This document shows positions 12,094-57,431 of a stretch of DNA of 64,000 nt, piece after piece; positions within the stretch are counted from its first letter, which is position 1; every line of letters begins with the position of its first letter. The notes below the pieces were generated by a model. It searched no databases. It saw only the letters and a list, made by a program, of their open reading frames with translations, and was not told the origin of the DNA. The stretch is from a virus (Duplodnaviria > Caudoviricetes). The stretch is taken from positions 1-64,000 of IMG/VR virus record IMGVR_UViG_3300044266_000273; one strand, written 5' to 3'. The position numbers and the translations under genes are program-made.

Positions 12094-12094
12094 T

Positions 12095-30196: not shown

Positions 30197-30736
30197 ATGA
30201 ACAAACCTAAACATTACATCAACAATGAAGATTTCCTACGTGCTCTGGTCTCGTACAAAGAGTCGTGTGTTCTGGCCAAAGAACAAGGATTATCTAAACC
30301 AAAAATACCAAATTACATTGGTGAATGCTTCATGAAAATTGCTGAAGGGCTATCACACAAACCAAACTTCATCAATTATCCACACCGAGAAGACATGATT
30401 GGAGACGGTATTGAAAATTGTTTGATGTACTTTGAGAACTTTGATCCAGCCAAATCTAAAAATCCATTTGCATACTTCACTCAAGTTATCTACTTTGCAT
30501 TTCTCCGCAGGATACAAAAAGAGAAAAAACAATTGTATGTCAAGTACAAGTCTACCGAAACAGCTGGTGTACTGGATGAATATGATATGTTAGACTTTGA
30601 AGACGGCACCACCAAACAATTTCAGTTATATGATAATATTGCCGAGTTCATAGAGAACTATGAAGAGAGTCGAAAAAACAAAAAAGTAGCAAAGACAGCA
30701 CCAAAAAAAGGTGTTGAAAAATTTATGGAAGATTGA
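30197..30736 (+). CDS. gp55: Late sigma factor gp55
   Basis: HYINN, YIGECFMKIAEGLS.KPNF, NPFAYFTQ..YFAFLRRI. Confidence 0.95.
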   Translation: MNKPKHYINNEDFLRALVSYKESCVLAKEQGLSKPKIPNYIGECFMKIAEGLSHKPNFINYPHREDMIGDGIENCLMYFENFDPAKSKNPFAYFTQVIYFAFLRRIQKEKKQLYVKYKSTETAGVLDEYDMLDFEDGTTKQFQLYDNIAEFIENYEESRKNKKVAKTAPKKGVEKFMED

Positions 30737-42205: not shown

Positions 42206-42275
42206 AGAAGACATGTGGAGGATGTTGTAGACCTAAATACTGGCATTGAGTTTGCGAAAACTTACTGGAGAACCC

Positions 42276-43286: not shown

Positions 43287-43333
43287 TTAAAAAAGTTTAC
43301 TATATACCTTTATAACTTTTGATGGAGTTTTAA

Positions 43334-43438
43334 TTGTTACACATATCCAAACCCGTTACAACCTGTGAGTATCGCACACCATTTATTGGTAGCGATAATC
43401 AGTCATGGCTACACGGCAAAGGGGTATGTGAAACCTAG
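43334..43438 (+). CDS. Putative attenuator leader peptide (34 aa, 19 different amino acids)
   Basis: GGAG-6nt-TTG; MLHISKPVTTCEYRTPFIGSDNQSWLHGKGVCET*; not in ORF track. Confidence 0.7.
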   Translation: MLHISKPVTTCEYRTPFIGSDNQSWLHGKGVCET

Positions 43439-43496
43439 TAAAACCTAAAAAGTAAAAAAATTTCACAAGCCCCACCCTAAAAAAGTGGGGTTTTTT
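43421..43496 (+). terminator. Antiterminator/terminator switch upstream of tRNA array
   Basis: Terminator GCCCCAC/GTGGGGT + T-run; alternative pairing 43421-43433 with 43461-43473. Confidence 0.75.
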
Positions 43497-43582
43497 GTTG
43501 CTTTTTTGCAACACACGTATTGACAAAGTTCTAGAACTGTGTATAATTCGTGATTCGTTCTTAAAAAATTTAAAGTAGTTTG
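43496..43582 (+). promoter_or_regulatory. tRNA-array promoter module 1 (palindrome, sigma70 promoter, boxA-like leader)
   Basis: TGTTGC-N6-GCAACA; TTGACA-16-TATAAT; 29-nt leader identical to 44251-44279. Confidence 0.75.
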
Positions 43583-43583
43583 T

Positions 43584-43660
43584 AGCCGCTTCGCCAAGTC
43601 CGGTAAGGCACTTGATTTTGATTCAAGCATTCGGTGGTTCGAATCCATCAGCGGCTGCCA
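43584..43660 (+). tRNA. tRNA-Gln(TTG)
   Basis: Cloverleaf, CTTGA-TTTTGAT-TCAAG, CCA. Confidence 0.9.
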
Positions 43661-43754
43661 TATTGAAGCACATTATAGTGACGCATGAGCAGGTCATTAA
43701 CTTCCGCTGGTTACGCCAATCGTAAGTGAGTGAAGATAGTGTGTTTCAATATGG
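43658..43754 (+). ncRNA. Conserved-stem cassette 1
   Basis: CCATATTGAAGCACATT...AGTGTGTTTCAATATGG enclosing 63 nt. Confidence 0.6.
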
Positions 43755-43760
43755 TTTATT

Positions 43761-43851
43761 GGAAACGTGGCAGAGTCCGGTTTATTGCAACAGTCTTGAA
43801 AACTGTCGAGCGCATCATGCTCCGTGAGTTCGAATCTCACCGTTTCCGCCA
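43761..43851 (+). tRNA. tRNA-Ser(TGA)
   Basis: Class II cloverleaf, G73, CCA. Confidence 0.9.
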
Positions 43852-43857
43852 ATTTTC

Positions 43858-43947
43858 CGAGAACGGGCAGGACGGTAATGCAGCGGATTGCTAATCCGTA
43901 GATTCATGAAAATGGATCACAGGGTTCGACTCCCTGGTTCTCGGCCA
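43858..43947 (+). tRNA. tRNA-Ser(GCT)
   Basis: Class II cloverleaf, G73, CCA; lacks U8. Confidence 0.82.
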
Positions 43948-44015
43948 AGTTGTGTTGCAACTGATTTGAGGAACTCCCGTACACCTCAAAAAGAATGACA
44001 AAAAAACGGGGCCAT

Positions 44016-44107
44016 GCCAGCGAGACTTGGTAGTCAGAGAGGTCTTATAAGCCTTTTAGCGCCAGATTAGCGTTCTTGAGAGTGTTCGATTCACTCCGCT
44101 GGTACCA
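44016..44107 (+). tRNA. Non-canonical tRNA, anticodon TAT, long variable arm
   Basis: GCCAGCG/CGCTGGT acceptor, CTTATAA loop, GAGTG-TTCGATT-CACTC, ACCA. Confidence 0.7.
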
Positions 44108-44112
44108 ATTAT

Positions 44113-44188
44113 GTGCGTGTGATCCGAATGGTTAGGAAGCGGATTGCAAATCCGTATTATGCAGGTTCGACTCCTGTCACGCACTCCA
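44113..44188 (+). tRNA. tRNA-Cys(GCA)
   Basis: Cloverleaf, U73, CCA. Confidence 0.9.
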
Positions 44189-44193
44189 ATAAA

Positions 44194-44279
44194 TGTTGTA
44201 TTTGTACAACAGCTGGTTGACAAACCTTCCAGTTCATGTACAATACATCTTTCGTTCTTAAAAAATTTAAAGTAGTTTG
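44194..44279 (+). promoter_or_regulatory. tRNA-array promoter module 2
   Basis: TGTTGT-N6-ACAACA; TTGACA-16-TACAAT; same 29-nt leader as module 1. Confidence 0.75.
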
Positions 44280-44354
44280 CTCGGTTCGTCTATCGGTTTA
44301 GGACGCTAGCCTTTCACGCTGGAAAGACGGGTTCGACTCCCGTACCGAGTACCA
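44279..44354 (+). tRNA. tRNA-Glu(TTC)
   Basis: Cloverleaf, CTTTCAC loop, CCA. Confidence 0.9.
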
Positions 44355-44475
44355 TTTGTTTTGCTGATTGTAAGCCATGGGCTTGATCATGCCTGAGTAA
44401 CTATGTATATAATTGCGGTAATTCTAGACAATCCCGCATGAGCATAGCAAATAGTGCAGTCAGCAAAACAAATGG
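44352..44475 (+). ncRNA. Structured RNA closed by a long terminal stem
   Basis: CCATTTGTTTTGCTGATTG pairs with CAGTCAGCAAAACAAATGG; internal stems. Confidence 0.6.
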
Positions 44476-44481
44476 TAATAG

Positions 44482-44557
44482 GCGGGTATAACTCAGTTGG
44501 TAGAGTAACTGGCTTTTAACCAGTAAGTCCTCGGTTCGAGCCCGAGTGCCCGTACCA
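44482..44557 (+). tRNA. tRNA-Lys(TTT)
   Basis: Cloverleaf, CCA. Confidence 0.92.
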
Positions 44558-44564
44558 AGTTTTT

Positions 44565-44657
44565 GGGTGTCTTGATGCTAAGGCGTGTGCATCACCAGAC
44601 TGTAAATCTGGTCCCTCGTGGTAAACATTCGCGGTTCGACTCCGTGGACACCCACCA
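44565..44657 (+). tRNA. tRNA-Tyr(GTA)
   Basis: CCAGA-CTGTAAA-TCTGG, long variable region, extended D-stem. Confidence 0.82.
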
Positions 44658-44666
44658 AATTATAAT

Positions 44667-44743
44667 GCCCTGGTGACGGAATTGGTATACGTGTTGGTCT
44701 TAGAAGCCAAATTTTGAGAGTTCGAGTCTCTCCTAGGGCACCA
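44667..44743 (+). tRNA. tRNA-Leu(TAG), short variable arm
   Basis: 77 nt, Leu-type D-arm, CTTAGAA loop. Confidence 0.85.
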
Positions 44744-44819
44744 TATTGAAGCACATTCTTTGAGGTCTTGGTCGTTACCGGCGTATGCAAAAACGGCGAC
44801 AGAGTGTGTTTCAATATGG
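44741..44819 (+). ncRNA. Conserved-stem cassette 2
   Basis: Same 17-nt arms enclosing 45 nt. Confidence 0.6.
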
Positions 44820-44891
44820 TGAGAGTAAGGGTGGTATGTAGGTGTTCTCTCAACACTGAGGACTGGGATTCCCTGGCCAGCAACACTGGCG

Positions 44892-44971
44892 CCATATTGA
44901 AGCACATTATCAATGTAGGTTCGATTCCTCGCCATTGATCCGGTTGCTGGTGTTAGTGTGTTTCAATATGG
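44892..44971 (+). ncRNA. Conserved-stem cassette 3
   Basis: Same 17-nt arms enclosing 46 nt with a T-loop-like AGGTTCGATTCCT. Confidence 0.6.
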
Positions 44972-45044
44972 TCTCAAAGTGTTCATGGACGCACGTATGC
45001 CTGTCACGCATAAAGAAGGGGATCGTTACCCCTTGGGACCGCCA
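44970..45044 (+). tRNA. tRNA-Asp(GTC)
   Basis: TATGC-CTGTCAC-GCATA, G73; T-loop ATCGTTA. Confidence 0.85.
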
Positions 45045-45060
45045 TAAATATTTTTTCTAT

Positions 45061-45135
45061 TCCCCAATAGCTCAGTGGTAGAGCAAAGCACTGTTAATGC
45101 TTGGGTCCGAGGTTCGAAACCTTGTTGGGGAGCCA
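45061..45135 (+). tRNA. tRNA-Asn(GTT)
   Basis: Cloverleaf, CCA. Confidence 0.92.
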
Positions 45136-45141
45136 AATAAA

Positions 45142-45218
45142 CGGAGTGTAGCACAGCCTGGTAGTGCGCTTGCTTTGGGAGCAAGAGGTCCAAGGTTCGA
45201 ATCCTTGTACTCCGACCA
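45142..45218 (+). tRNA. tRNA-Pro(TGG)
   Basis: Cloverleaf, C1-G72, CCA. Confidence 0.93.
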
Positions 45219-45267
45219 ATCTCGCCTTGACTGACGGCGTACAGAAGGATAAATTGTCAGTTTATAT

Positions 45268-45342
45268 GGGCTGCTAGTGATAATGGGAGCACGCCGGCTT
45301 TGCACGTCGGAGGTTGGAGTTCGATCCTCCAGCGGTCCACCA
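45268..45342 (+). tRNA. tRNA-Ala(TGC)
   Basis: G3-U70, TTTGCAC loop. Confidence 0.9.
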
Positions 45343-45346
45343 TTAC

Positions 45347-45421
45347 GGTTCAATGACGTAGACGGATGCGTACCGGTTTCATAAGCCGAGGAGATTGGAT
45401 CGTTACCAATTTGAACCACCA
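45347..45421 (+). tRNA. tRNA-Met(CAT), elongator-like
   Basis: TTCATAA loop; T-loop ATCGTTA; CCA. Confidence 0.78.
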
Positions 45422-45426
45422 AATTT

Positions 45427-45501
45427 CGGTCTTTGGTGAAACGAATATCACGTAGGGCTACGGACCCTAAGTTAGGGGTTTGATTCCTCTAGGACCGGCC
45501 A
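45427..45501 (+). tRNA. tRNA-Arg(ACG)
   Basis: TAGGG-CTACGGA-CCCTA, CCA. Confidence 0.85.
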
Positions 45502-45503
45502 AA

Positions 45504-45577
45504 ACCCGCGTAGCTCAATGGTAGAGCAAAGTGCTGATAACGCTGAGACACAAGTTCGATTCTTGTCGTGGGTACCA
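45504..45577 (+). tRNA. tRNA-Ile(GAT)
   Basis: CTGATAA loop, CCA. Confidence 0.88.
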
Positions 45578-45582
45578 GTAAT

Positions 45583-45656
45583 TCCGGGGTAGTATAATGG
45601 CAGTGCGGCGGTCTCCAAAACCGTTAGTGGGGGTTCGATTCCCTCTCCCGGAGCCA
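45583..45656 (+). tRNA. tRNA-Trp(CCA)
   Basis: GCGGT-CTCCAAA-ACCGT, G73. Confidence 0.9.
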
Positions 45657-45679
45657 ATATATAATAACAAGAGGTTAAT

Positions 45680-46162
45680 ATGAAAAAATTAGATATTGCT
45701 GAAGTTAAAAAATTCATTCAGGCACAAAGCCCTGATACTAAGATTTATCTTGGTGCTGATTCCGAACGTTTTAGAATGGACGGAAAATGGTATGCAGACT
45801 ACACTTTGGCAGTTGTTGTTCATATTAACGGCCGCCACGGGTGTAAGATTTTTGGTGAAGTTCAACGTGAGTTGGATTATGACCAAAAGAAAAGTAAGCC
45901 TGCATTACGTTTGATGAATGAAGTATATAAAGTTGCTGACTTGTTCAATCAACTTATTGATGTAATTGAAGATAGACACGTAGAAGTTCATTTAGATATT
46001 AATCCTGATGAACACTTCGGTTCTTCATGCGTTATTCAACAAGCGATTGGTTATATTCGTGGCACATGTAACGTGGTGCCAATGGTTAAACCAAAAGCGT
46101 TTGCTGCGTCATATGCTGCTGACAGATTAAAACATGTCATGGCTATGTCTAAAGCTGCTTAA
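45680..46162 (+). CDS. RNase H-like protein, YkuK/DUF458 family
   Basis: KIYLGADS, AVVVH..G..G, RLMNEV, VEVHLDIN, AASYAAD. Confidence 0.78.
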   Translation: MKKLDIAEVKKFIQAQSPDTKIYLGADSERFRMDGKWYADYTLAVVVHINGRHGCKIFGEVQRELDYDQKKSKPALRLMNEVYKVADLFNQLIDVIEDRHVEVHLDINPDEHFGSSCVIQQAIGYIRGTCNVVPMVKPKAFAASYAADRLKHVMAMSKAA

Positions 46163-46165
46163 TAT

Positions 46166-46240
46166 GGTGTCTATGGTGTAGTGGAAGCATTACTCTCTGT
46201 GAAAGAGTAGGTACGAGGTCGGTACTCGTTAGACACCCCA
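46166..46240 (+). tRNA. tRNA-His(GTG)
   Basis: G-1:C73, CTGTGAA loop; atypical T-loop GTCGGTA. Confidence 0.85.
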
Positions 46241-46256
46241 ACAAAAGGAATAGATT

Positions 46257-46496
46257 ATGATCCCACTTAATAATAATGTAATTGTTAAACGTTCAGAAAA
46301 AAAGTTAACAACTGAATCTGGAATTATATTGCAACGAAATGATGATGCAGATTTTGCGGATGTTATTTCTGTTGGGCCAGATGTCGTTGATGTGACTGTC
46401 GGTGAAAAAGTGTTGTTGGATTGGAACAAAGCAATAAAAATTGACAAAGAAAATTTTAAAATTTCTGTTGACAACATTATTGCAGTTGCAGTATAA
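46257..46496 (+). CDS. groES: GroES/Cpn10-like co-chaperonin
   Basis: PLNNNVIVKR..TTESGIIL..VISVGP..V.VGEKVL. Confidence 0.85.
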   Translation: MIPLNNNVIVKRSEKKLTTESGIILQRNDDADFADVISVGPDVVDVTVGEKVLLDWNKAIKIDKENFKISVDNIIAVAV

Positions 46497-46506
46497 TTAA
46501 CTCATC

Positions 46507-46580
46507 GCCTCCTTAGTTTAATGGTAGAACTCCGTCTTTACACGGCGGTTACGGCAGTTCGATTCTGTCAGGAGGCACCA
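46507..46580 (+). tRNA. tRNA-Val(TAC)
   Basis: Cloverleaf, CCA; TTGACA-18-TATAAT at 46468-46497 upstream. Confidence 0.9.
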
Positions 46581-46583
46581 ACG

Positions 46584-46657
46584 GCTCTCATAGTATAAAG
46601 GTATTACACATCCTTGGTAAGGCTGAGACACAGGATCGTTACCTGTTGAGAGCACCA
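46584..46657 (+). tRNA. tRNA-Thr(GGT)
   Basis: TTGGTAA loop; T-loop ATCGTTA. Confidence 0.82.
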
Positions 46658-46661
46658 ATAT

Positions 46662-46737
46662 GCCGCTATGGTGAAGGTGGTCCTCACGCTGGTCTGAAGT
46701 ACCAGAGAACTCTGATCGTAACAGAGTGGCGGCACCA
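46662..46737 (+). tRNA. tRNA-Phe(GAA)
   Basis: CTGGT-CTGAAGT-ACCAG; T-loop ATCGTAA. Confidence 0.82.
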
Positions 46738-46739
46738 TA

Positions 46740-46814
46740 CTGGCGTTAGTTCAATGGACAGAACAGTAGCCTTCTAAGCTATTAATAGAGGTTCGATTCC
46801 TCTACGCCGGACCA
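46740..46814 (+). tRNA. tRNA-Arg(TCT)
   Basis: CTTCTAA loop, CCA. Confidence 0.9.
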
Positions 46815-46818
46815 ATTA

Positions 46819-46908
46819 GCCCGAATGGTGAAATAGGTAGACACAAGAGACTTAAAATCTCTCGCTTCCGAAAGGGGCGTGCCGGTTCGATTCCGGCTTC
46901 GGGCACCA
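46819..46908 (+). tRNA. tRNA-Leu(TAA)
   Basis: Class II cloverleaf, CCA. Confidence 0.92.
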
Positions 46909-46926
46909 AGTTTACCAAAATTGTAC

Positions 46927-46955
46927 TTGACTTATTAAAAAATACACTATATAAT
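46927..46955 (+). promoter_or_regulatory. Sigma70-type promoter inside tRNA array
   Basis: TTGACT-17-TATAAT just upstream of tRNA-Gly. Confidence 0.7.
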
Positions 46956-46964
46956 AATGACATT

Positions 46965-47037
46965 GCGGGTGTTCTCCTGGGAGAGGACTTAGCCTTCCAA
47001 GCTAAAGAAGCCGGTTCGAATCCGACCACCCGCTCCA
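46965..47037 (+). tRNA. tRNA-Gly(TCC)
   Basis: CTTCCAA loop, U73. Confidence 0.87.
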
Positions 47038-47045
47038 AAATTTAA

Positions 47046-47119
47046 GCCCTTTTAGTATAATGGCATTACGTCGGTTTTGTAATCCGAATACGGGAGTTCG
47101 ATTCTCTCAAGGGGCACCA
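47046..47119 (+). tRNA. tRNA-Thr(TGT)
   Basis: TTTGTAA loop, CCA. Confidence 0.88.
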
Positions 47120-47124
47120 AGATT

Positions 47125-47198
47125 GCGGGATTAGTTTATTGGTAAAACGAAACCTTGCCAAGGTTTAGTGATCAGTTCGATTCTGATATCCCGCTCCA
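47125..47198 (+). tRNA. tRNA-Gly(GCC)
   Basis: TTGCCAA loop, U73. Confidence 0.9.
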
Positions 47199-47199
47199 G

Positions 47200-47395
47200 A
47201 ACGTGCCGTCTAATCAACGGCTAGTGTGACCCACATGACAGGAAGTGGCGTGATAACCACGGGTGGTAGTCTTTAAACCGAAAGGCCGCTGGCAATGCGT
47301 AAACGGCCCTTGTCGAGGAGCGGGTGGAAGGTATAGTGAGGGGCTAAAAGCCTGATGCATATACTACAATTACCGCCGAGGGGCGTCAGAGCATT
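47200..47395 (+). ncRNA. ~195-nt structured RNA, manA-motif-like
   Basis: GC-rich, multi-hairpin, bounded by tRNAs; size and context match the manA motif as recalled, not searched. Confidence 0.5.
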
Positions 47396-47401
47396 TTATT
47401 T

Positions 47402-47476
47402 CGCGGGATGGGAAAGTAGAAATCCGCTTGGCTCATAACCAAGAGATCGGTGGTGCGAATCCACCTCCCGCAACCA
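47402..47476 (+). tRNA. tRNA-fMet(CAT), initiator-like
   Basis: CGCGGG start, C1:A72 mismatch, CTCATAA loop. Confidence 0.85.
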
Positions 47477-47478: not shown

Positions 47479-47754
47479 CTACTTTAAATTTTCTTCTCTA
47501 CAGGACCTCTCACGGTATACTTTACCTTCGGGCGTCTGTATTTCTTTCCACTCGGTGCACACAATTTGTTTTTCCACCACGATTGGTTGTTGCGATTTGA
47601 CTATTTCATAGACAACTACACCACTAACGATTGATGGAATAACCCAACCCATACCTGGTTTCCAAACCCAATGTGGATGTGGTTGTTGATGTCTATATTG
47701 TGCCGATGCACTCAGTGAAACAACTGCAAGTAAAAGAACTACGAACTTTTTCAT
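47479..47754 (-). CDS. Small secreted protein
   Basis: Sec signal MKKFVVLLLAVVSLSASA; second hydrophobic segment; Cys pair. Confidence 0.6.
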   Translation of the reverse strand: MKKFVVLLLAVVSLSASAQYRHQQPHPHWVWKPGMGWVIPSIVSGVVVYEIVKSQQPIVVEKQIVCTEWKEIQTPEGKVYRERSCREENLK

Positions 47755-47763
47755 GTTATCTCC

Positions 47764-49767
47764 TTATTTGCTTGTTGCTCTGTACACACCATCCCATGTA
47801 GATGGTTTACCTTCTCTCAGGCGTTCAAGCATAGCTTCATAATATTTGTGCAATTCTGACCCGTCTTGTATTGCTTTTTCGGCAATTTCTATTGCCTTGT
47901 CCCAATCGCCGTTGTAATATGCATCTAAGAATTGTTCTTGTGTGATGGCTTGGCCTAATGTATAAATCTTCACGCCTTCCTTCTTTCCTTTAACTGCAAT
48001 ACAATCCAATTCAACAACAGGATATTCATCTTTAACCTGTTCTGCGGTGAGTGTTCCTAAAACAATTTTGACACCGTATGGTTTACTTTGGCCTTCTAGG
48101 CGTGATGCGAGGTTAACATGATCGCCAAGACATGTATAATCAAAACGCTGAGAAGAACCCATATTGCCAACAACGACAACACCTGTATTAATACCAAGTC
48201 CCATTCCGAAAGCTGGAACTCCTTCTGCAGCAATTTCTTTATTGAACGCATCTAAACTATCCATCATTTGTATTGCTGTTTTTACGGCCATCTTTGCATG
48301 GTTGGGTTCATCTAACGGTGCGTTCCAGAATGCCATCTGAGCATCGCCAATATATTTATCTAAAGTTCCGTTATTTTCAATAATTTTTGCGGTCATTGCT
48401 GTCATGTAACGATTCATAATTTTGGTGAGCCCCTGAACATCCTTACCATAGTGTTCGGAGATTGTTGTGAAACCACGAACATCGGTAAACATAATCGACA
48501 ATTCACGTGATTCGCCACCAAGAACCAACAGTTCCGGATTCTTCTGTAATTTTTCTACCAGTGCTGGGCTTAGATATGTTCCAAATTGTTTTTTGATTTG
48601 GAGCTTTTGGCGCAACTCGACAAGGAACTTGACAACATATCCATGGACGCTAACCAACCCAATGGCGAGTATCGGAAATACAGCATCAAGTAGATAACCT
48701 GATCGTAAAAATAATTCAATCCCTGCATAGTAGGTAGCGACTGCCAAGGAGATTGTGAAGATGTAGCCATGTGTGAACCTTGTAATAAAGAACAGAGATA
48801 ATACAGATATAAGAGCAATGAATAAAAGTTCACTTACAGTTGCCCAATCCGGTCTACTGATATTTGTACCTGATGTAACTGTATCTAACACACTGGCTTG
48901 CAGATGGTGTGGAAACACTTCTCCTTTGGCAGTTGCAACTGGATTGTTAAGACCCTTGCCTGTGATGCCAACGATTACGATCTTGCCACCAAAATCAGCA
49001 GGTAATTCGGACAGAGAATATTCTTTTGCTTTTGATGACCAATCAATCCAAATTCTACCAACATTGTCTGTTGTTATCTTACCAAATTTAGGTATACGTA
49101 ACGCTTCAATTGACCCGTCGTTTACCTTGACCTGAAAACTTGGATCGCCTGCAGCAACACGAAGTGTTTCCATTGACATACTTGGATATAACAAGTCATT
49201 TGTACGAACGACCATCGGTATACGGCGAGTAACACCATCAATCTCCGGCAATACGTTGACTACACCAATACCAGCAGCAGAGTCATTTAGAACTTTGATG
49301 TTTGGTTGTATTGTACCGTAGTTGATACCAACATCACCTTCACCAATGATGGAAACACCTGGCCTAAATGGTTCGTAATTTCTTGTTGATTTATCAGATG
49401 TAGCTACGTGAGGTAGAACAACTGGATATTTTTTTATTGCAGCAGATAACGCAGCATCGCCACCAAACCTATCAGGCTCAGGCATATAGACGTTAAACAC
49501 AACCAACCCAGCACCACGAGCGTAGATATCAGCAATAATGGCGGCATATTCCCGACGGGGGAATGGGAACTGTCCTTTTTGTCGAATAGTTTCGTCATCT
49601 ATGTTTACCACGGCGACTTGTTGGGACTCCGTGCTCTCTTTTGAAGTGATGAGTTGGTCAAAATATCTAAGCCTGACCGACTCAACGAAAGACGGATCTT
49701 GCACTCTAATAAACAAGACAAGTAGTAGAGTAAGCAAGGCCATCCAAGGAGATAATAATTTTTTCAT
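47764..49767 (-). CDS. CHASE2-domain class III adenylate cyclase
   Basis: N-terminal TM, CHASE2 (VNIDD..GQFPFPR, DGVTRR), 3 TMs, FTDVRGFT, DKYIGDA, YTCLGDHVNLASRLEG. Confidence 0.92.
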   Translation of the reverse strand: MKKLLSPWMALLTLLLVLFIRVQDPSFVESVRLRYFDQLITSKESTESQQVAVVNIDDETIRQKGQFPFPRREYAAIIADIYARGAGLVVFNVYMPEPDRFGGDAALSAAIKKYPVVLPHVATSDKSTRNYEPFRPGVSIIGEGDVGINYGTIQPNIKVLNDSAAGIGVVNVLPEIDGVTRRIPMVVRTNDLLYPSMSMETLRVAAGDPSFQVKVNDGSIEALRIPKFGKITTDNVGRIWIDWSSKAKEYSLSELPADFGGKIVIVGITGKGLNNPVATAKGEVFPHHLQASVLDTVTSGTNISRPDWATVSELLFIALISVLSLFFITRFTHGYIFTISLAVATYYAGIELFLRSGYLLDAVFPILAIGLVSVHGYVVKFLVELRQKLQIKKQFGTYLSPALVEKLQKNPELLVLGGESRELSIMFTDVRGFTTISEHYGKDVQGLTKIMNRYMTAMTAKIIENNGTLDKYIGDAQMAFWNAPLDEPNHAKMAVKTAIQMMDSLDAFNKEIAAEGVPAFGMGLGINTGVVVVGNMGSSQRFDYTCLGDHVNLASRLEGQSKPYGVKIVLGTLTAEQVKDEYPVVELDCIAVKGKKEGVKIYTLGQAITQEQFLDAYYNGDWDKAIEIAEKAIQDGSELHKYYEAMLERLREGKPSTWDGVYRATSK

Positions 49768-50795
49768 CGTGATATTTGTTTTATAATAATTTTGTTAGTT
49801 GTAGAATCTTGATTCTTAATGTACAATGTGGTACTATCCTGAATCAACGTAATATCATATCCTCTATCTTTATTTATGAGTATGGTCGCTAAGTCTTTGA
49901 CGCGGCGTTCTATGTACCAATAGGTATTACGGTCAAGTATGTAGAGTTGTGTAGTTGGATTGTAACCTACAGGAAACGAACTGATATCAAATATGTTTTC
50001 CAATGCGTTTGTCAAATTATTCGTATCAAGGTCGTTGATATTCAATTCATTGAACTTGAGTTCATCTTTGAATACTTGTTCGTTTAGTGGATTATAATCT
50101 AATGCGTTAAAAGAAAGTGGATTATTATCTCTTGTGTTTTCTTCTTGCAGTGCCTTGACAATTTCTTTTGGTGGTTTGACTATCAACATATTGTCAATCA
50201 TAGACTCCGTTAGATTCAAAATTGCAGGCGCAAGAGGCTTTGCTTCAGCTAGGCCAGCATATGTGGCTTGAAATGCTTTGTTTAAAGTCACAGACCCCAT
50301 TGCCGTGCGGACTTCAATCTCCCCGACGGTGCCATCTTGATTTGGAAGAAGAATAATTGTCGATGCACCTACTTCATCCACTGTCATAGAGAAAGCAGTA
50401 CCTCGCACCGCAACTGTTGCTGTCGGCGTCTTCACATCAACATTCTTGTTATTCTCTTTGGCTATATTACCTGAAGCATATCGTACTGTGCCGAGTGCAA
50501 CTTTCATTGCAAGTTTGCCAGTACCTTTTGATTTAGGATCATATACGAAATCATCAATCACCAATTTTGAATGTTGTGTGACACGTACTTTTGTGTCGTC
50601 CTCAAACGTAATTCCAACTATACCGTTGGCCGTTTGAACGCTATCCATAGACTCGACGCCAGCATTCATCTTGGCGTCGAGTTTCAACTTATTACGAACT
50701 ATCTCACTACTTCCCTTTTCTTCAGTTACTTTACCAATAGATGCAAAACAATTAATGCTGAGTGATAGTAGTAGTAGTGCTATTACCCGTAACAT
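49764..50795 (-). CDS. Periplasmic FecR-domain protein
   Basis: Signal peptide; ITFEDDT.V...S.L.ID; VKTPTATVAVRGTAF. Confidence 0.85.
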   Translation of the reverse strand: MLRVIALLLLSLSINCFASIGKVTEEKGSSEIVRNKLKLDAKMNAGVESMDSVQTANGIVGITFEDDTKVRVTQHSKLVIDDFVYDPKSKGTGKLAMKVALGTVRYASGNIAKENNKNVDVKTPTATVAVRGTAFSMTVDEVGASTIILLPNQDGTVGEIEVRTAMGSVTLNKAFQATYAGLAEAKPLAPAILNLTESMIDNMLIVKPPKEIVKALQEENTRDNNPLSFNALDYNPLNEQVFKDELKFNELNINDLDTNNLTNALENIFDISSFPVGYNPTTQLYILDRNTYWYIERRVKDLATILINKDRGYDITLIQDSTTLYIKNQDSTTNKIIIKQISR

Positions 50796-51465
50796 TCAGA
50801 TTGATGATGTTAGGAGTTGTAGTTCCGTTTTGTGTAATTGAAACGGTGTTATTATTACCAATGATTGTGCTTGTAATTTTGTGTCCAGGTGTATTTGCTG
50901 TACCATCAGCACCATTCTGAACAGTGGTGTAACTATTATAGTTGCCTGTCAATGTAATATTGTTCACAATGTACTTGCTGTTCATTGTGCTGGTCACTGT
51001 ATTGTGATTGCCACCAATAGTCAGATTGTAGAGGTAGTTTGATGTATCAGCAGTCGATGCCATCGTAAACGACACGGTGTTGTTGTCACCAGTCTTGGTC
51101 ACAGTCATACTTCCAGCGTTGGTGCCAAAGTTACCTTGTGTCAAACTAAATGAGTTCGTTGAACCAGTTTGCGTGATGCTCGCCGTTGAATCACCACCAA
51201 TAAAATTACCAACAATAGAGTTGTTCATACCGTCTTGGACGATAGTCAACGCCATGTTGTTGCCGTCAATCAAGAATGCTGGTTGTAGAATAGCACTTCG
51301 ATCACCGACAGCATTACCTGATCCGGTCTGTGTAATTGTTACAGTTGAATTATCAGCATTAGTTTGATCAATATACACAGAGTTGTTACCAGAGTTTGTT
51401 GCTAAAACACTTGTAACAAATAACAAAGACATAATAAACGCAAAAATGCGATTTGTCTTTTTCAT
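50752..51465 (-). CDS. Curlin-repeat (CsgA/CsgB-like) secreted protein
   Basis: Signal peptide; repeated ITQTGS.N / IVQDG.NN / G..N.V.I.Q units, N/T/G-rich. Confidence 0.7.
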   Translation of the reverse strand: MKKTNRIFAFIMSLLFVTSVLATNSGNNSVYIDQTNADNSTVTITQTGSGNAVGDRSAILQPAFLIDGNNMALTIVQDGMNNSIVGNFIGGDSTASITQTGSTNSFSLTQGNFGTNAGSMTVTKTGDNNTVSFTMASTADTSNYLYNLTIGGNHNTVTSTMNSKYIVNNITLTGNYNSYTTVQNGADGTANTPGHKITSTIIGNNNTVSITQNGTTTPNIINLNVTGNSTTTTITQH

Positions 51466-51474
51466 AGTCCTTCC

Positions 51475-52263
51475 TTATTCAGGTCTTTTAAAAGGTTGTT
51501 TAAATTTCCAGAGGCCTTTTTCCTCACCTTGATATACCATTTCTTCGACAGCTAAATCAACAGCTGCCTTTACAGCATATATAGTCGGTTCGGTACTTGT
51601 ACTTCCTATTTCATTTTCAAATGAACGTGTTCCTTGATTGAAAAATTTAAATGTGGCCACAGAAGTTGCAACACTCAATAACGTTTTTTGTGTATTCACA
51701 GTTAAAATAACTTCTCCTGTTTGCACATTCACCGCTCTCAAGGATACAGTCACTATATCTTCTTGGTATTGTGTCATTGGCCCAATACCCAAATAACGCC
51801 ATCCAAAACCACCAGTTCTTTTATTCGTATCGTAAGATACAATAGAACCTTCAATAATCATTCCTGCATATAAAATAGGTCTTAATATATTTACATCTTT
51901 TGCCTCTTCACGTGCGGACCTAATTAATTGTCTTTCTTTGAGCAAGTTATCTAAACCAACTCGCTCAACAATACGAAACCATTTACCATCTCCAACATCT
52001 GCTAACGCCTTGAGTAATAATGATTCTGCACCTTGTGTGACTGCGGATGATAATTTGGCAACGCCACCACCATCTTTTCTTTGACCAGTCTTGTCGGTGA
52101 AGTTATAAACCGCAACTACAATAGGCTGTGATGTTTCGGGCTCAGGAAAGGGGCGCTTGAATTTTGTCGGCTCAACTTTCTCTGCATCCTGAGTGTCCCA
52201 TACCATAGGCAACTCAGCACATCCAGCAAATAATACCAACAATAAAAGTATAATTTTTTTCAT
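51475..52263 (-). CDS. csgG: Curli secretion pore CsgG-like lipoprotein
   Basis: Lipobox LFAGC; VAVYNFTDKTGQ, SSAVTQGA, VERVGLDNLLKERQLIR, EGSIVSYDTN. Confidence 0.92.
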   Translation of the reverse strand: MKKIILLLLVLFAGCAELPMVWDTQDAEKVEPTKFKRPFPEPETSQPIVVAVYNFTDKTGQRKDGGGVAKLSSAVTQGAESLLLKALADVGDGKWFRIVERVGLDNLLKERQLIRSAREEAKDVNILRPILYAGMIIEGSIVSYDTNKRTGGFGWRYLGIGPMTQYQEDIVTVSLRAVNVQTGEVILTVNTQKTLLSVATSVATFKFFNQGTRSFENEIGSTSTEPTIYAVKAAVDLAVEEMVYQGEEKGLWKFKQPFKRPE

Positions 52264-52709
52264 CAGAACTTAAATTGAGCTATAGGAATAGTAATTTGTG
52301 TAACACTACCATCCGCACCAACGACAGTGAGACTAATTTCATCACCATTTTTTGAGTATGTGATTGTGTTGCCAGATATGACAACTGATCCAGAATTTTT
52401 TGGATTTTCTCCGAATAAATTATTTACCAATTGAGAAGAAAGCTGTGCATACACACGTGATTCAAAGTTATTTAGAAACTTGGCCAAATTGGTATTGCCA
52501 GCTGCGGCCGCAGCATCTTTTGCTGCCTGAAGTTTTGCATTTTCAATCGCATCTTTACGAGTCTTTTCACTGTTCTCAATCGTTTGTACGTGGGCTGAAT
52601 AACTGATACCGTTGAAAGCCGGAGATTTAAACGTCTGTACTAATTCTGCATATACTGAACTACTTAGGATCAGTAGTGGTATCAATAGATAGTTCTTTAT
52701 TCTTTTCAT
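52263..52709 (-). CDS. csgF: Curli assembly factor CsgF-like
   Basis: Signal peptide then ELVQTFKSPAFNG; F..N.ESRVYAQLS; GSVTQITIP. Confidence 0.82.
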   Translation of the reverse strand: MKRIKNYLLIPLLILSSSVYAELVQTFKSPAFNGISYSAHVQTIENSEKTRKDAIENAKLQAAKDAAAAAGNTNLAKFLNNFESRVYAQLSSQLVNNLFGENPKNSGSVVISGNTITYSKNGDEISLTVVGADGSVTQITIPIAQFKF

Positions 52710-52944
52710 CTTTTAACTCCCTCAACATCAATACGATGTTTACCTTTTGGTTTAAACGTATTAAATCGTTATCTAACATACGTATGCGGTCAATCAATGC
52801 TATGAGTGTGCTGTTGGCTTCACCCAAAACAGGCTTGATTTCTTTTGTTACCCAAGTCCATACGTAGTATATGAAATATCCCATGCCAGCAGCACTGACG
52901 ATTGGGAATCCATACTTATTAATCAGTTCCGCTAGATCGCCCAT
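52660..52944 (-). CDS. Small membrane protein (GFPI motif, TM + coiled coil; holin/YvrJ-like)
   Basis: INKYGFPIVSAAGMGYFIYYVW; paralogue of 53098-53376. Confidence 0.55.
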   Translation of the reverse strand: MGDLAELINKYGFPIVSAAGMGYFIYYVWTWVTKEIKPVLGEANSTLIALIDRIRMLDNDLIRLNQKVNIVLMLRELKDEKNKELSIDTTTDPK

Positions 52945-53098
52945 CTTGCACTTTCTTAAACATAATACGGCCATCTCTTGTCACATGTGCAACAAACTTA
53001 TCTCCGTTTTTTACTTTTATACTTTCGGGACTTAACTCTTCATCCATAAGAATCGTTCCATCATCAAGCAATTCAAACAAATAATCAGCAAATAACAT
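52919..53098 (-). CDS. Small AbrB/SpoVT-like protein (not in ORF track)
   Basis: Manual translation MLFADYLFELLDDGTILMDEELSPESIKVKNGDKFVAHVTRDGRIMFKKV...; TGATG coupling. Confidence 0.5.
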   Translation of the reverse strand: MLFADYLFELLDDGTILMDEELSPESIKVKNGDKFVAHVTRDGRIMFKKVQDGRSSGTD

Positions 53099-53376
53099 CA
53101 GTCTCTCCTTGCATCATTTTTGCCATCAGCACGAGCAATTCTATCCACATCGGGCTTTACACCGAGTGCATTCGAAACGAGAGTGTCAATTCGGATTACA
53201 TCATGATTCATCGTTTTAACACGATTGTCTAAGGCCATAATTATGCCTTTGATGCCATTGACAGATCCTGTAACACCTTGTAAAATAAACTTCAGTGTCA
53301 GGAAAACAAAATAACCTGCTGCAAGAGCAGCTGCAATAGGAAAACCTACTTCCGCAACTAATTTGAAAAAATCCAC
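53098..53376 (-). CDS. Small membrane protein (GFPI motif, TM + coiled coil)
   Basis: GTG start after AAGGTGA; VAEVGFPIAAALAAGYFVF. Confidence 0.6.
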   Translation of the reverse strand: MDFFKLVAEVGFPIAAALAAGYFVFLTLKFILQGVTGSVNGIKGIIMALDNRVKTMNHDVIRIDTLVSNALGVKPDVDRIARADGKNDARRD

Positions 53377-53467
53377 AACGTCACCTTTTCTTATTATTTT
53401 TGGTGGCAATGTTGTTGCCTGACACTTGTATGTTCTGTTCAAGCCATATATAATATAGTACAACATC

Positions 53468-53475
53468 TATTTATG
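53468..53475 (-). promoter_or_regulatory. Late-promoter-like CATAAATA for the minus-strand operon
   Basis: TATTTATG on + strand; same variant precedes gp18 (18542). Confidence 0.5.
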
Positions 53476-53514
53476 CGAAGCCTCCTTTTCGCACAACCTT
53501 TAGGATTTCACATT

Positions 53515-53820
53515 ATGAAAATACTTGCACTAAAATTGATCACCCATGAAGAAGTGTTGGGTGAAATAGAATCGGAATCTGAAACTGAATTTGTACTGGT
53601 AAATCCAGTTGGAATTGCAGTGGTTCGCGGTAAAGACGGTATGCCTAACGTTGGATTTTCACCTTTTCCATTACATGCCGAACAAAAAACGGGTACAACT
53701 ATTGTATTGGCCAAGAAACATGTAGTATACTCCTACACTCCAGCTGAAGATTTTGTAAATAATTATAATCAAATTTTTGGTTCTGGAATTGTTCTACCTT
53801 CCAAACAACTTATCATCTGA
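53515..53820 (+). CDS. Conserved hypothetical (Sm-like) protein upstream of gp43
   Basis: LKLITHEEVLG, YNQIFGSGIVLP. Confidence 0.6.
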   Translation: MKILALKLITHEEVLGEIESESETEFVLVNPVGIAVVRGKDGMPNVGFSPFPLHAEQKTGTTIVLAKKHVVYSYTPAEDFVNNYNQIFGSGIVLPSKQLII

Positions 53821-56381
53821 TGGCTCATTTCTATACCAGCGTACAATGTATCGGTAATTACATTCTGTACCGTGGCGTAAAAGACGGTAAAAGAATCAAA
53901 CAGAGAATTGACTATTCTCCTTCATTGTATCTGCCTGCACGTAAACGTACACAAGCAACACACAAAACCCTTGATGGATTAGACCTGGATCGCAAGGAAT
54001 TCGAAGACATTCGTTCCGCCAGAGACTTTATTAAACAGTTCGATGGTATTCCTGGTGCACCAAAAATCTATGGTAATACTCGATATGAGTATGCATATAT
54101 TGCCGACCAACACGAAGATATGGTGGATTGGGACCAAGAACATATATTGATTGGTATTGTCGATATTGAGGTCGGTTCGGAAAATGGATTCCCTGATCCA
54201 TATGAGGCGAATGAACCAATAACGGCTATTACCATTTCTTATTTGAATGGTCATACTTATGTCTATGGTTGTGGTGATTATCAAAACAATGATCCAGAAA
54301 ACATCAGTTATCACAAATGTAAAGATGAATGGTCACTTTGCAAAAGTTTCCTTCTAGCGTGGATGAACAAAACACCAGATGTCATTACTGGTTGGAATAC
54401 GAAGTTCTTTGATATTCCATACATCATCAACCGTTTTCGTAAAATCTTAGGTGAAGATGAAACCAAGAAGTTATCGCCTTGGAATTATATCTCCGAAAGA
54501 AATACAGTAATCAATGGTCGACCACTAAAGGCGTATGAAATGTCTGGTATCGCATCACTTGATTATATTGAACTCTACAAATGGTATGCGCCAGGTGGAA
54601 AATCACAAGAATCATATAGGCTCGACAATATTGCCAACGTAGAACTGGGTGAAGGTAAAATCTCTTTTGATGAATATGATAATCTGCACCAACTTTACAG
54701 ATTAAATTATCAGAAGTTCATTGAATATAATATCAAAGACGTACATCTGATTATCAAACTTGAAGATAAGTTGAGGCTGTTGGAATTGGCTTTGACTCTT
54801 GCATATGACACCAAATCAAATTATGAGGATGTATTTGCACAAACAAGAATGTGGGATTCTCTGACATATTCATATCTGTTGAAACAGAATATTGTGGTTC
54901 CACCAAAAGAAGTTAAAGAGAAAGATGCCGCATTTGAAGGTGCTTATGTTAAAGATCCACAAGTTGGTATACATGAATGGGTTGCTTCTTTTGACTTGAA
55001 TAGTCTGTATCCACATCTGATGATGCAATATAACATTTCACCAGAAACATTGGTTCAGCCAGAAAATTATACGGAAGAAATGCGTAATGTTATTTCTCAA
55101 GGCGTAAACGTTCATAAATTACTGCTTAAGTCGGTTAATCTGTCAAATTTGACTGATGTGACGATTACCCCAAATGGTCAATTCTTCCGCACTGATATTC
55201 AAGGGTTCTTGCCAAAGATGTTAGAAGAAATGTATGAAGATCGCAAGAAATTCAAAAAAATGATGATTCAGGCAAAGAAAGACTATGAGGTTGAAACTGA
55301 TGATTCTAAAAAATATGAACTAGAGAAAAAGATTGCACGATTAAATAATCTTCAGTTGGCCAAAAAAGTATCATTGAACTCAGCTTATGGTGCGCTTGGT
55401 TCACAATACTTTAGATTCTATGATTTGAGAATGGCACTTGGTGTTACCACTGCTGGTCAGTTGTCTATTCGGTGGATTGAGGCTAAAATCAACGACTACA
55501 TGAATAAGATTCTAAAAACGGAAGATGTTGATTATGTCATTGCTTCTGACACAGATTCAATTTATTTGCGATTGGGTGATTTGGTTCATAAGGTTTATGG
55601 TGCAGATAAAGCTGCATCCTCACCTAAATTGAAGACTATTGAATTTATGGATAAGGTCTGTGAAGAACGATTGCAGCCATATATTGACAAATCTTATAAA
55701 GAATTGGCAGAATATGTACATGCGTATGCACAGAAAATGCAGATGAAACGTGAGGGTCTTTCTGATAAAGGTGTCTGGACGGCCAAGAAGAGATATATCT
55801 TAAACGTATATAATAATGAGGGTGTTCAATATAAAGAACCGCACATGAAGATTATGGGTTTGGAAATGATTAAGTCTTCCACACCTTCCGCCATCCGTGA
55901 AAAGATGACAGAAACAATTAAGATCATGATGACTGGTACCGAATCTGATGTGCAAAATTTCATACAAGAGTTTAAAGATAGGTTTAAAAAGTTGCCACCA
56001 GAAGAGATATCCTTTCCTCGTGGTTTGAATGGGCTCAAAACATATTCGGATCCGGCATCTTTGTATACGAAAGGTACACCAATTCACGTAAAAGGTGCCA
56101 TTCTATATAATCATTACCTCAAACAGTATGGTCTGACTAAACGGTATCCATTAATTCAAGAAGGTGAGAAGATTAAGTTTACCTATCTCAAGACACCAAA
56201 TCACTTCAAAGATACCGTAATTTCATATCCCGGTAGGTTACCAAAAGAGTTTGAGCTTGACAAATACATTGATTATGATTTACAATTCGAAAAAGCATTT
56301 CTGGAACCCATCAGAGTTATCTTGGACTGTGTGAAATGGAAAGTTGAGAAGACCAGTTCATTGGAAGATTTTTTCAGTTAA
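53820..56381 (+). CDS. gp43: Family B DNA polymerase gp43
   Basis: DIEV exo, FDLNSLYP, KVSLNSAYG, DTDS, SLEDFF clamp-binding tail. Confidence 0.98.
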   Translation: MAHFYTSVQCIGNYILYRGVKDGKRIKQRIDYSPSLYLPARKRTQATHKTLDGLDLDRKEFEDIRSARDFIKQFDGIPGAPKIYGNTRYEYAYIADQHEDMVDWDQEHILIGIVDIEVGSENGFPDPYEANEPITAITISYLNGHTYVYGCGDYQNNDPENISYHKCKDEWSLCKSFLLAWMNKTPDVITGWNTKFFDIPYIINRFRKILGEDETKKLSPWNYISERNTVINGRPLKAYEMSGIASLDYIELYKWYAPGGKSQESYRLDNIANVELGEGKISFDEYDNLHQLYRLNYQKFIEYNIKDVHLIIKLEDKLRLLELALTLAYDTKSNYEDVFAQTRMWDSLTYSYLLKQNIVVPPKEVKEKDAAFEGAYVKDPQVGIHEWVASFDLNSLYPHLMMQYNISPETLVQPENYTEEMRNVISQGVNVHKLLLKSVNLSNLTDVTITPNGQFFRTDIQGFLPKMLEEMYEDRKKFKKMMIQAKKDYEVETDDSKKYELEKKIARLNNLQLAKKVSLNSAYGALGSQYFRFYDLRMALGVTTAGQLSIRWIEAKINDYMNKILKTEDVDYVIASDTDSIYLRLGDLVHKVYGADKAASSPKLKTIEFMDKVCEERLQPYIDKSYKELAEYVHAYAQKMQMKREGLSDKGVWTAKKRYILNVYNNEGVQYKEPHMKIMGLEMIKSSTPSAIREKMTETIKIMMTGTESDVQNFIQEFKDRFKKLPPEEISFPRGLNGLKTYSDPASLYTKGTPIHVKGAILYNHYLKQYGLTKRYPLIQEGEKIKFTYLKTPNHFKDTVISYPGRLPKEFELDKYIDYDLQFEKAFLEPIRVILDCVKWKVEKTSSLEDFFS

Positions 56382-56390
56382 GGAAATAAC

Positions 56391-57431
56391 ATGAGTATAC
56401 TTGACAAAATTAAAAAGAACACATCAATCAAAGATTCAGCCATTCTGGCTAAATCGAAGTTTTTTACAAACAAGGATATGATTCCCACTCCTATTCCTGT
56501 TGTTAACGTTGCACTATCTGGCAAACTAGATGGTGGGTTAACGCCAGGTCTAACAATGTGGGCAGGTCCATCCAAACACTTCAAGACAGCATTTTCATTG
56601 TTGATGGCCAAGTCATATATGGACAAGTATGAAGATTCTGCTTTGTTGTTTTATGATTCTGAATTTGGCACACCGCAATCCTACTTTGATTCATTTGAGA
56701 TTGACAAAGAAAGAGTTTTGCATACACCTATTACCGACATTGAACAATTGAAGTTTGATATCATGGGACAACTTTCAAACATTGAACGTGGCGAACGTTT
56801 GATTATTGTGATTGATTCAATTGGTAATCTGGCATCCAAGAAAGAAGTTGAAGATGCACTAGAAGGAAAATCTGTTGCAGATATGTCCCGTGCCAAACAA
56901 ATTAAATCATTGTTTCGTATGGTGACCCCGCACTTAACACTCAAAGATATTCCCATGATTGTTGTCAATCATACTTACAAAGAAATTGGAATGTTCCCCA
57001 AAGACATTGTTGGTGGCGGCACAGGCAGTTATTATTCTGCTGATAACATCTTTATCATTGGTCGTCAACAAGAAAAAGATGGGCAAGAAATCACTGGTTA
57101 TAATTTTATCATTAACGTAGAGAAGTCTAGATATGTCAAAGAAAAATCTAAAATACCTGTTACTGTATCTTTCAACGGTGGTATCAGCAGGTGGTCTGGC
57201 CTACTTGACTTGGCTCTTGAGTCCAAACATGTGGTTAAACCATCCAATGGGTGGTATTCTAAGGTAAACGTCAAGACTGGTGAAGTTGAAGATAAAAAAT
57301 ACCGAGAAAAGGATACTGATACCAAAGAGTTCTGGTTCGACATTCTTGCCGATCCATCTTTTGCTGAATTTATTGAAAGCAAATACCGCGTGGCATCTTC
57401 CGAAATCATAAATTATGAGGATGAAGAATGA
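56391..57431 (+). CDS. uvsX: RecA-like recombinase UvsX
   Basis: AGPSKHFKT, YDSEFG, IDSIGNLASKKE. Confidence 0.96.
   Translation: MSILDKIKKNTSIKDSAILAKSKFFTNKDMIPTPIPVVNVALSGKLDGGLTPGLTMWAGPSKHFKTAFSLLMAKSYMDKYEDSALLFYDSEFGTPQSYFDSFEIDKERVLHTPITDIEQLKFDIMGQLSNIERGERLIIVIDSIGNLASKKEVEDALEGKSVADMSRAKQIKSLFRMVTPHLTLKDIPMIVVNHTYKEIGMFPKDIVGGGTGSYYSADNIFIIGRQQEKDGQEITGYNFIINVEKSRYVKEKSKIPVTVSFNGGISRWSGLLDLALESKHVVKPSNGWYSKVNVKTGEVEDKKYREKDTDTKEFWFDILADPSFAEFIESKYRVASSEIINYEDEE

Follow-up and report, generated by a model that had tools for sequence, protein, structure and literature searches.

The 64,000-nucleotide stretch analysed here (positions 1 to 64,000 of the IMG/VR virus record IMGVR_UViG_3300044266_000273; hereafter the window) carries, on its minus strand at positions 47479-53466, a block of genes that joins a curli-type secretion module to an exported FecR-fold protein and a CHASE2 adenylate cyclase. 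This block is almost certainly a copy of the 'viral type VIII secretion (curli) region' of pelagiphages and phage Melnitz, and it is carried here by a separate lineage of T4-like phages, which is large and uncultured. We tentatively read it, with confidence somewhat short of even, as a two-arm, secretion-coupled envelope sensor that would make cyclic AMP (cAMP) and would be expressed late in infection.

Curli genes in such phages were described by Zaragoza-Solas et al. (2020; PMC7029224), who found them absent from freshwater SAR11 myophages, and Buchholz et al. (2022; PMC9004378) modelled CsgG and CsgF and proposed a role in the timing of lysis. Wittmers et al. (2022; PMC9599517) reported the entire region, with FecR, an adenylate cyclase and, upstream, one or two genes labelled 'histidine kinase', in myo- and podoviruses of SAR11, with a global distribution and transcripts in metatranscriptomes; according to the same authors, phage curli make up approximately 0.1% of the viral proteins assembled from ocean viromes. 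In later literature we found no experimental test of the function of the block. A preliminary description of the window had treated the junction of curli and FecR/cyclase genes as new, which does not hold, since it was published in PMC9599517 and is annotated in two cultured phages, Pelagibacter phage HTVC008M and Methylophilales phage Melnitz. The same description had correctly singled out the only minus-strand block in the window, and we found no other real minus-strand coding block. Its list of parts stood for both membrane proteins, CsgF, CsgG, the curlin-type protein, FecR and the CHASE2 cyclase, but not for an 'AbrB-like' protein, a label without support from Pfam, PHROG or the ESM Atlas.

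The source record is 95.9 kb long, with an estimated completeness of 57%, and contains markers of T4-like phages: a DNA polymerase, UvsX, a helicase, a clamp loader, a gp55-type late sigma factor and an array of 27 transfer RNA (tRNA) genes. Its DNA polymerase is at most about 50% identical to that of any cultured phage. Every other large gene of the window lies on the plus strand, the block being the sole exception, flanked by the tRNA array on one side and by the divergently transcribed DNA polymerase region on the other. In the order of transcription, it comprises genes for a 92-amino-acid membrane protein, a 59-amino-acid open reading frame (ORF), a 94-amino-acid paralog of the first protein, CsgF, CsgG, the curlin-type protein, the FecR-fold protein, the CHASE2 cyclase and a 91-amino-acid ORF.

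To IMG/VR belong at least 582 stretches encoding relatives of the window cyclase, and we compared the nine window proteins with 131 viral loci. Cyclase-anchored loci with at least 6 kb of sequence on both sides contained both small membrane proteins, CsgF, CsgG and FecR in every case (25/25), and the fast-evolving curlin-type protein was detectable by BLAST in 22 of these 25. Among CsgG-anchored loci with enough flanking sequence, CsgF, curlin and FecR were present in 21/21 and the cyclase in 18/21. The survey of co-occurrence of csgG/csgF, FecR and cyclase that had been proposed for this block therefore revealed strict linkage, as judged from the 25 cyclase-anchored loci. The membrane pair is inverted downstream of the cyclase in loci L009-L011, L030, L035, L036, L040, L066, L077, L082, L084-L087, L117, L118 and L130; it is still linked there, indicating that the linkage survives rearrangement.

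We placed the cyclase, alone among the components of the block, on a maximum-likelihood tree. A branch with 100% support split 43 sampled viral cyclases, including those of the window, HTVC008M and Melnitz, from 24 bacterial ones, and the window cyclase fell inside a large clade of uncultured contigs. The tree is consistent with one capture event and later dissemination among phages, a scenario put forward earlier (PMC9599517).

The components of the secretion module were each assigned from sequence or structure. The phage CsgG could be aligned end to end with E. coli CsgG (E 1e-46), and the Cys of the lipobox is among the aligned residues. At the positions that form the constriction in E. coli (Y51, N55 and F56), this alignment places G, K and L in the phage protein, whose pore lining therefore differs from that of E. 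coli and is probably more positively charged. The Pfam match of CsgF lies above the Pfam cut-off and covers profile positions 8-132 of 132; a sequence search with CsgF against solved structures returned nothing useful. In the curlin-type protein, Q-x-G-x-x-N motifs are kept across 36 viral homologs. Its AlphaFold model (predicted local distance difference test, pLDDT, 84; predicted template modelling score, pTM, 0.79) consists of strand-turn-strand repeats, and its best match among 48,161 PDB representatives was the Pontibacter CsgA 8c50 (Z 18.5, 22% identity); Foldseek on the same model gave nothing below E 0.1. A CsgE gate, CsgC and CsgD were also sought, and none had a Pfam match among the nine block proteins, to which this search was confined.

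The FecR-fold protein has a signal peptide, a FecR beta domain (approximately residues 17-210), a disordered linker and a small C-terminal beta domain (model pLDDT 79). The model of its FecR domain matched the periplasmic domain of PupR (6ovk) with a Z of 15.4. Additionally, the first half of the fold superposes on the 'cell surface anchoring domain' of PDB 5ix9, which we take to be from an RTX ice-binding adhesin (Z 7.2, 73/76 residues), a likeness at the level of the fold only. The C-terminal domain (residues 275-340), searched within the whole-protein model, had no clear structural match. Neither the model nor the hydropathy profile revealed an anti-sigma domain or a membrane anchor, the sole hydrophobic segment being the N-terminal signal peptide. 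For the usual partners of iron-type regulation we searched this record and four relatives whose genomes are complete or nearly so (96-100%). TonB_dep_Rec had no match in these five, and they contained no extracytoplasmic function (ECF)-type sigma factor, the only Sigma70_r2-like match being the gp55-type late factor; partners of these kinds may be encoded by the host. We thus rejected a role as an iron-type anti-sigma regulator, there being no anti-sigma part and neither a TonB-dependent receptor nor an ECF sigma factor encoded by the phage; the phage protein is a free, exported FecR-fold protein and not a FecR-type anti-sigma factor.

The cyclase is predicted, from Pfam matches and hydropathy, to consist of a first transmembrane helix, a periplasmic CHASE2 domain, three further transmembrane helices and a cytoplasmic catalytic domain; PF05226 spans residues 13-324, PF00211 residues 421-604, and the hydrophobic helices lie at 4-22 and 310-374. 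Residues D429, K471, D475, T545, N552 and R556 aligned with the catalytic residues of Cya2-derived and CyaB structures, as the metal-binding Asp pair (D429/D475), the ATP-type substrate pair (K471/T545) and the transition-state pair (N552/R556), all of which the preliminary description had already read as retained. In 10 diverse viral copies these residues are invariant, except for T545 (T/D/S) and N552 (N/S). From these residues, the cyclase looks catalytically intact.

To examine the FecR/cyclase pair outside viruses, we searched the 10-kb flanks of the 80 nearest bacterial cyclases (30-38% identity, for the most part from Alphaproteobacteria) with hidden Markov models built from the viral proteins. 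None of these loci (0/80) contained CsgG, CsgF or curlin within the flanks searched. Conversely, a FecR-domain ORF occurred within the same distance in 27/80 loci, often directly upstream of the cyclase, and several of these ORFs encode giant proteins in which an N-terminal FecR domain is followed by cadherin-like, laminin-G or RTX repeats. ATP-binding cassette (ABC) transporter and HlyD genes lay within 10 kb in 20/80 loci, and directly upstream of the cyclase in those checked with Pfam. The loci checked also encode giant proteins of RTX, cadherin or Ig type near the cyclase, a part of which begin with a FecR domain. Individual loci also hold TolC-type genes, RTX genes, a Crp-type regulator or GAF-HD proteins. 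These results indicate that in bacteria FecR and the CHASE2 cyclase naturally go together and are associated with exported surface proteins, and that the junction of this pair with a curli exporter is specific to viruses. In agreement, CHASE2 cyclases of Campylobacterota cluster with FecR-domain outer-membrane proteins (PMC9239204), and in S. meliloti signalling by the CHASE2 cyclase CyaK depends on the outer-membrane protein NsrA (PMC7529298).

Individual bacterial loci carry genes with a possible connection to cyclic nucleotides. In an uncultured alphaproteobacterium (L178), a gene at 8246-9961 (+) encodes an HlyD-type fusion protein with an N-terminal cyclic nucleotide monophosphate (cNMP)-binding domain (E 2e-18); the cyclase gene (9968-12325) starts within 7 nt of it, and a C39-ABC transporter and a FecR-RTX protein are encoded nearby. 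This arrangement suggests that cAMP may feed back on secretion. A GAF-HD protein, possibly a cyclic-nucleotide phosphodiesterase, is encoded directly upstream of the cyclase at L140:8670-9905 and L162:8627-9865, and a Crp-type regulator just downstream of it at L156:13015-13737; the phage block has neither.

Upstream of the block, at a distance of approximately 92 nt from the codon where the first gene probably begins, is the T4-type late-promoter-like motif CATAAATA, and NATAAATA is the form of the late promoter in marine T4-like phages. The closest relative (L004) has an identical motif at the same distance. In 55 of 71 distinct loci, NATAAATA occurs in the 160 nt that precede the homologous first gene, with TATAAATA in 37, as compared with a background of 2.4% of random windows from the same loci. 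The late-type motif noted in the preliminary description is thus a feature of its relatives as well, and the sequence around it is otherwise not conserved across loci. Over the whole window, exact TATAAATA was not enriched (5 found, 4.85 expected). The gp55-type factor encoded in the window would read this promoter, and the motif makes late expression of the block likely.

Starting from the gene content, fold assignments, catalytic residues, co-occurrence, late-promoter motif and bacterial contexts observed above, we infer the physical contacts, the formation of a fibre, the signal sensed and the output of a device that could work as follows. The block would be transcribed late from its gp55-type promoter, and its products would form two coupled arms in the envelope of the Gram-negative host. 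In the export arm, the CsgG lipoprotein would be the outer-membrane channel and CsgF its cap, and the curlin-type subunit, exported by Sec, would pass through the channel and polymerise on the cell surface. In the sensor arm, the exported FecR-fold protein would report the state of the periplasm, or of the outer-membrane arm, to the CHASE2 domain, and this signal would change the synthesis of cAMP in the cytoplasm by the inner-membrane cyclase. The FecR protein and the cyclase would be a pair taken from Alphaproteobacteria, with the phage having joined this sensor to a curli exporter, and the two paralogous inner-membrane proteins would be fixed members of the device. A relay from the outer membrane to cytoplasmic cAMP had been put forward in the preliminary description. 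This idea fits the strict linkage, the intact residues of the cyclase and the FecR/CHASE2 partners in bacteria; on its output side, we found no cNMP-binding receptor in the phage genomes searched. Two further suggestions of that description, that superinfection is sensed and that lysis is timed by the relay, found no support in our results.

A broader form of the same proposal, which we consider rather unlikely, takes the 'secretion-coupled envelope sensor' as a general use of the FecR-fold/CHASE2 pair. In bacteria, the pair would monitor the periplasmic end of an adhesin exported by a type I system, with the HlyD-cNMP protein closing a feedback loop in the one locus that has it. In phages, it would have been re-wired to curli, such that the state of the fibre, through contact with neighbouring cells or incoming phages, would set late cAMP via an unrecognised receptor, possibly the two small membrane proteins.

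Several observations weigh against a coupled, two-arm sensor. The loci surveyed are phylogenetically non-independent, and the contact that would physically couple the curli arm to FecR and the cyclase is one that we infer. Three CsgG-anchored loci with approximately 7-8 kb of downstream sequence (L037, L049 and L051) contain CsgF, curlin and FecR but no cyclase, indicating that the cyclase is dispensable in some phages and that the arms are separable; the cyclase is also less frequent in podoviruses (PMC9599517). Since the constriction residues of CsgG differ from those of E. coli, export of the curlin-type protein is uncertain. The score of this protein against Curlin_rpt (19.9 bits) is just under the cut-off of 20.7 bits, and generic beta-helices reach a Z of 16.7 with its model, about 2 Z below CsgA. 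A cNMP-binding domain, the sole type of receptor searched for, was absent from this record, from the four complete or nearly complete relatives and from Melnitz, so that cAMP must act via host proteins or an unrecognised receptor. Finally, Buchholz et al. (PMC9004378) saw no clumping of cells infected with Melnitz.

Some of these observations would suit two independent functions that travel together, an alternative to which we give a low but appreciable probability. Curli would then alter the surface of the infected cell, leading to aggregation ('sibling capture') or to a barrier against other phages, and the FecR/cyclase pair would reprogram host metabolism through cAMP in response to a periplasmic cue. 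Bacterial FecR/cyclase pairs do occur with no curli gene nearby (0/80 loci), 3 of the 21 CsgG loci dispense with the cyclase, in some loci the cyclase gene lies on the other strand or is split off by inserted genes, and aggregation and exclusion have already been proposed (PMC7029224, PMC9599517). Yet the linkage is complete in the 25 well-flanked cyclase loci and outlasts rearrangement, FecR is encoded between the curlin genes and the cyclase with reading frames that often overlap, and no clumping was seen with Melnitz (PMC9004378). Moreover, the same family of cyclases can sit within bacterial secretion or adhesin loci, which favours a coupling to export, as in the two-arm sensor.

Two further proposals assign the block to lysis or to import. 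As a device for timing lysis (Buchholz et al. 2022), the small membrane pair would act like a holin and antiholin, CsgG and CsgF would form a lesion or a gated pore in the outer membrane, and the cyclase would set the time. This appears improbable to us, even though a late promoter heads the block and the small proteins each have one hydrophobic helix followed by a coiled helix. One of their nearest ESM Atlas clusters is named 'holin family', and they match a PHROG holin family with E 0.0086; the name is automatic and the score non-significant, and no endolysin gene adjoins them. Among GenBank phages, small proteins of the phrog_18771 type occur only in Melnitz and HTVC008M, adjoining their curli genes, and they are not general in marine T4-like phages, which also lyse. 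A narrow channel in the outer membrane, in addition, cannot depolarise the inner membrane, and curlin and FecR would be left without a role. Still harder to reconcile with our results, and in our view very improbable, is the import of nutrients or iron, in which an ungated CsgG pore would admit cofactors or siderophores under control of FecR as an iron-citrate-type regulator (PMC9599517). It draws on the absence of a CsgE-type gate from the block proteins and on the origin of the FecR family name in iron-citrate signalling (PMC9599517). The phage protein, however, has a signal peptide only and neither a cytoplasmic anti-sigma domain nor a membrane anchor, no TonB-dependent receptor accompanies it and the only sigma-like match is of gp55 type (this record and four relatives), and in bacteria the proteins related to it accompany CHASE2 cyclases and surface adhesins rather than genes for iron uptake.

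The small membrane proteins themselves are paralogs (A and B), each with a GFPI motif, one hydrophobic helix and then a conserved helix, as indicated by alignment and hydropathy. The open frame of paralog B extends to an ATG at 53466, and the phrog_18771 match corresponds to residues 31-122 of this long frame. Because its relatives (91-92 amino acids) and the PHROG match begin at the GTG at 53376, this is the most likely start; for paralog A, the most likely start is 52944. The published label 'histidine kinase' for these genes was not supported, since neither HisKA/DHp nor HATPase_c had a Pfam match even at E values of up to 5. The window proteins are of only 92-94 amino acids, and among the best 150 of 1060 relatives, of 67-209 amino acids, the longest had no kinase domain. 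For the 59-amino-acid ORF between the paralogs, we found 17 distinct homologous ORFs in related loci, no family in Pfam or PHROG and only unnamed viral clusters in the ESM Atlas; this is the ORF that had been labelled 'AbrB-like'. The last, 91-amino-acid ORF has a homolog only in the closest relative (L004; 68% identity), and no family match in Pfam or PHROG.

The genes on either side of the block are as follows. The 27 tRNA genes, at 41069-47476 (+), are convergent with the block, and 3 nt separate the end of their array from the stop codon that closes the last ORF. The divergent neighbour at 53473-53820 (+) belongs to phrog_527, and its likely start is the ATG at 53515, because the family match begins at residue 15; an intergenic region of approximately 138 nt (53377-53514) must therefore hold both divergent promoters. 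Coordinates of the block and of related features are collected in Table 1.

Table 1. Features of the minus-strand block, its late-promoter-like motif and the late sigma factor gene (window positions).
Feature	Position	Strand	Basis or remark
Small single-pass membrane protein, paralog B, 92 amino acids from GTG	53098..53376	-	phrog_18771, E 4e-34
59-amino-acid ORF between the paralogs	52919..53098	-	homologs in the same position in some related loci
Small single-pass membrane protein, paralog A, 94 amino acids from ATG 52944	52660..52944	-	phrog_18771, E 1.9e-32
CsgF-like protein with signal peptide	52263..52709	-	Pfam PF10614, E 1.7e-15; phrog_35372, E 1e-39
CsgG outer-membrane lipoprotein channel	51475..52263	-	Pfam PF03783, E 2e-54
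Secreted curlin-type beta-solenoid (putative CsgA/B-like fibre subunit)	50752..51465	-	Pfam Curlin_rpt, E 7e-4
Exported FecR-fold protein, 343 amino acids	49764..50795	-	Pfam PF04773, E 1.2e-8
CHASE2 class III adenylate cyclase	47764..49767	-	PF05226, E 6e-40; PF00211 (Guanylate_cyc), E 2e-21
91-amino-acid ORF with N-terminal signal-like segment, doubtful member of the block	47479..47754	-	open frame
CATAAATA, T4-type late-promoter-like motif	53468..53475	-	some 92 nt ahead of the probable GTG start of paralog B
gp55-type late sigma factor	30197..30736	+	phrog_234 'late sigma transcription factor', E 1.3e-62; weak Sigma70_r2 match

Through this widespread block, infected cells acquire proteins absent from the known hosts, and the copy in the window extends it well beyond the cultured phages of SAR11 and OM43, into a large, tRNA-rich T4-like lineage. 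With the junction itself already in the literature, our additions are the linkage counts, the promoter survey, the corrected labels and the bacterial context. This context, with its type I secretion and adhesin loci and its Crp-type, GAF-HD and cNMP-HlyD neighbours, offers a concrete and testable model for sensing by the FecR/cyclase pair.

Compared with the csgBAC/csgDEFG system of E. coli, the block shares a lipoprotein channel of the CsgG family and a CsgF cap, and it encodes a secreted beta-solenoid that is probably of curlin type. It differs in that its proteins include no CsgE, CsgC or CsgD and in that the constriction of CsgG is replaced, and it adds the FecR, cyclase and membrane-pair genes, which bacterial curli loci do not have. 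The superposition of the N-terminal half of the FecR protein on 5ix9 also recalls type I adhesin loci with a periplasmic retention domain; the phage exporter, however, is of curli type (type VIII), and the ABC, HlyD and TolC genes of type I loci are missing from the block.

As in the bacterial FecR/CHASE2 pairs, an exported FecR-fold protein is encoded beside a CHASE2 class III cyclase. In the published bacterial model (PMC7529298, PMC9239204), the inner-membrane cyclase receives a signal from a protein of the envelope and makes cAMP, and the cluster of Campylobacterota comprises a CHASE2 cyclase, a FecR outer-membrane protein, a phosphodiesterase and a TPR protein (PMC9239204). The bacterial partners are large outer-membrane or surface proteins, whereas the phage FecR protein is of 343 amino acids and has no barrel; likewise, bacteria possess Crp-type receptors, such as Clr, whereas a search for cNMP_binding found none encoded by the phage.

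The closest counterparts are the regions of HTVC008M (KC465899, approximately 6900-13807) and Melnitz (MZ577097, approximately 50118-56876), with which the window shares the gene set, the gene order and a T4-like genome. The window proteins are 37-38% (cyclase) and 44-45% (CsgG) identical to those of these cultured phages. Unlike in HTVC008M and Melnitz, the FecR and cyclase genes are not separated by a second curlin gene, and the block is flanked by the 27-tRNA array and the DNA polymerase gene instead of adjoining ssb/thyX. Nevertheless, the order that characterises the viral type VIII secretion region, csgF-csgG-curlin preceded by small genes and followed by FecR and the cyclase, is present in full in the window.

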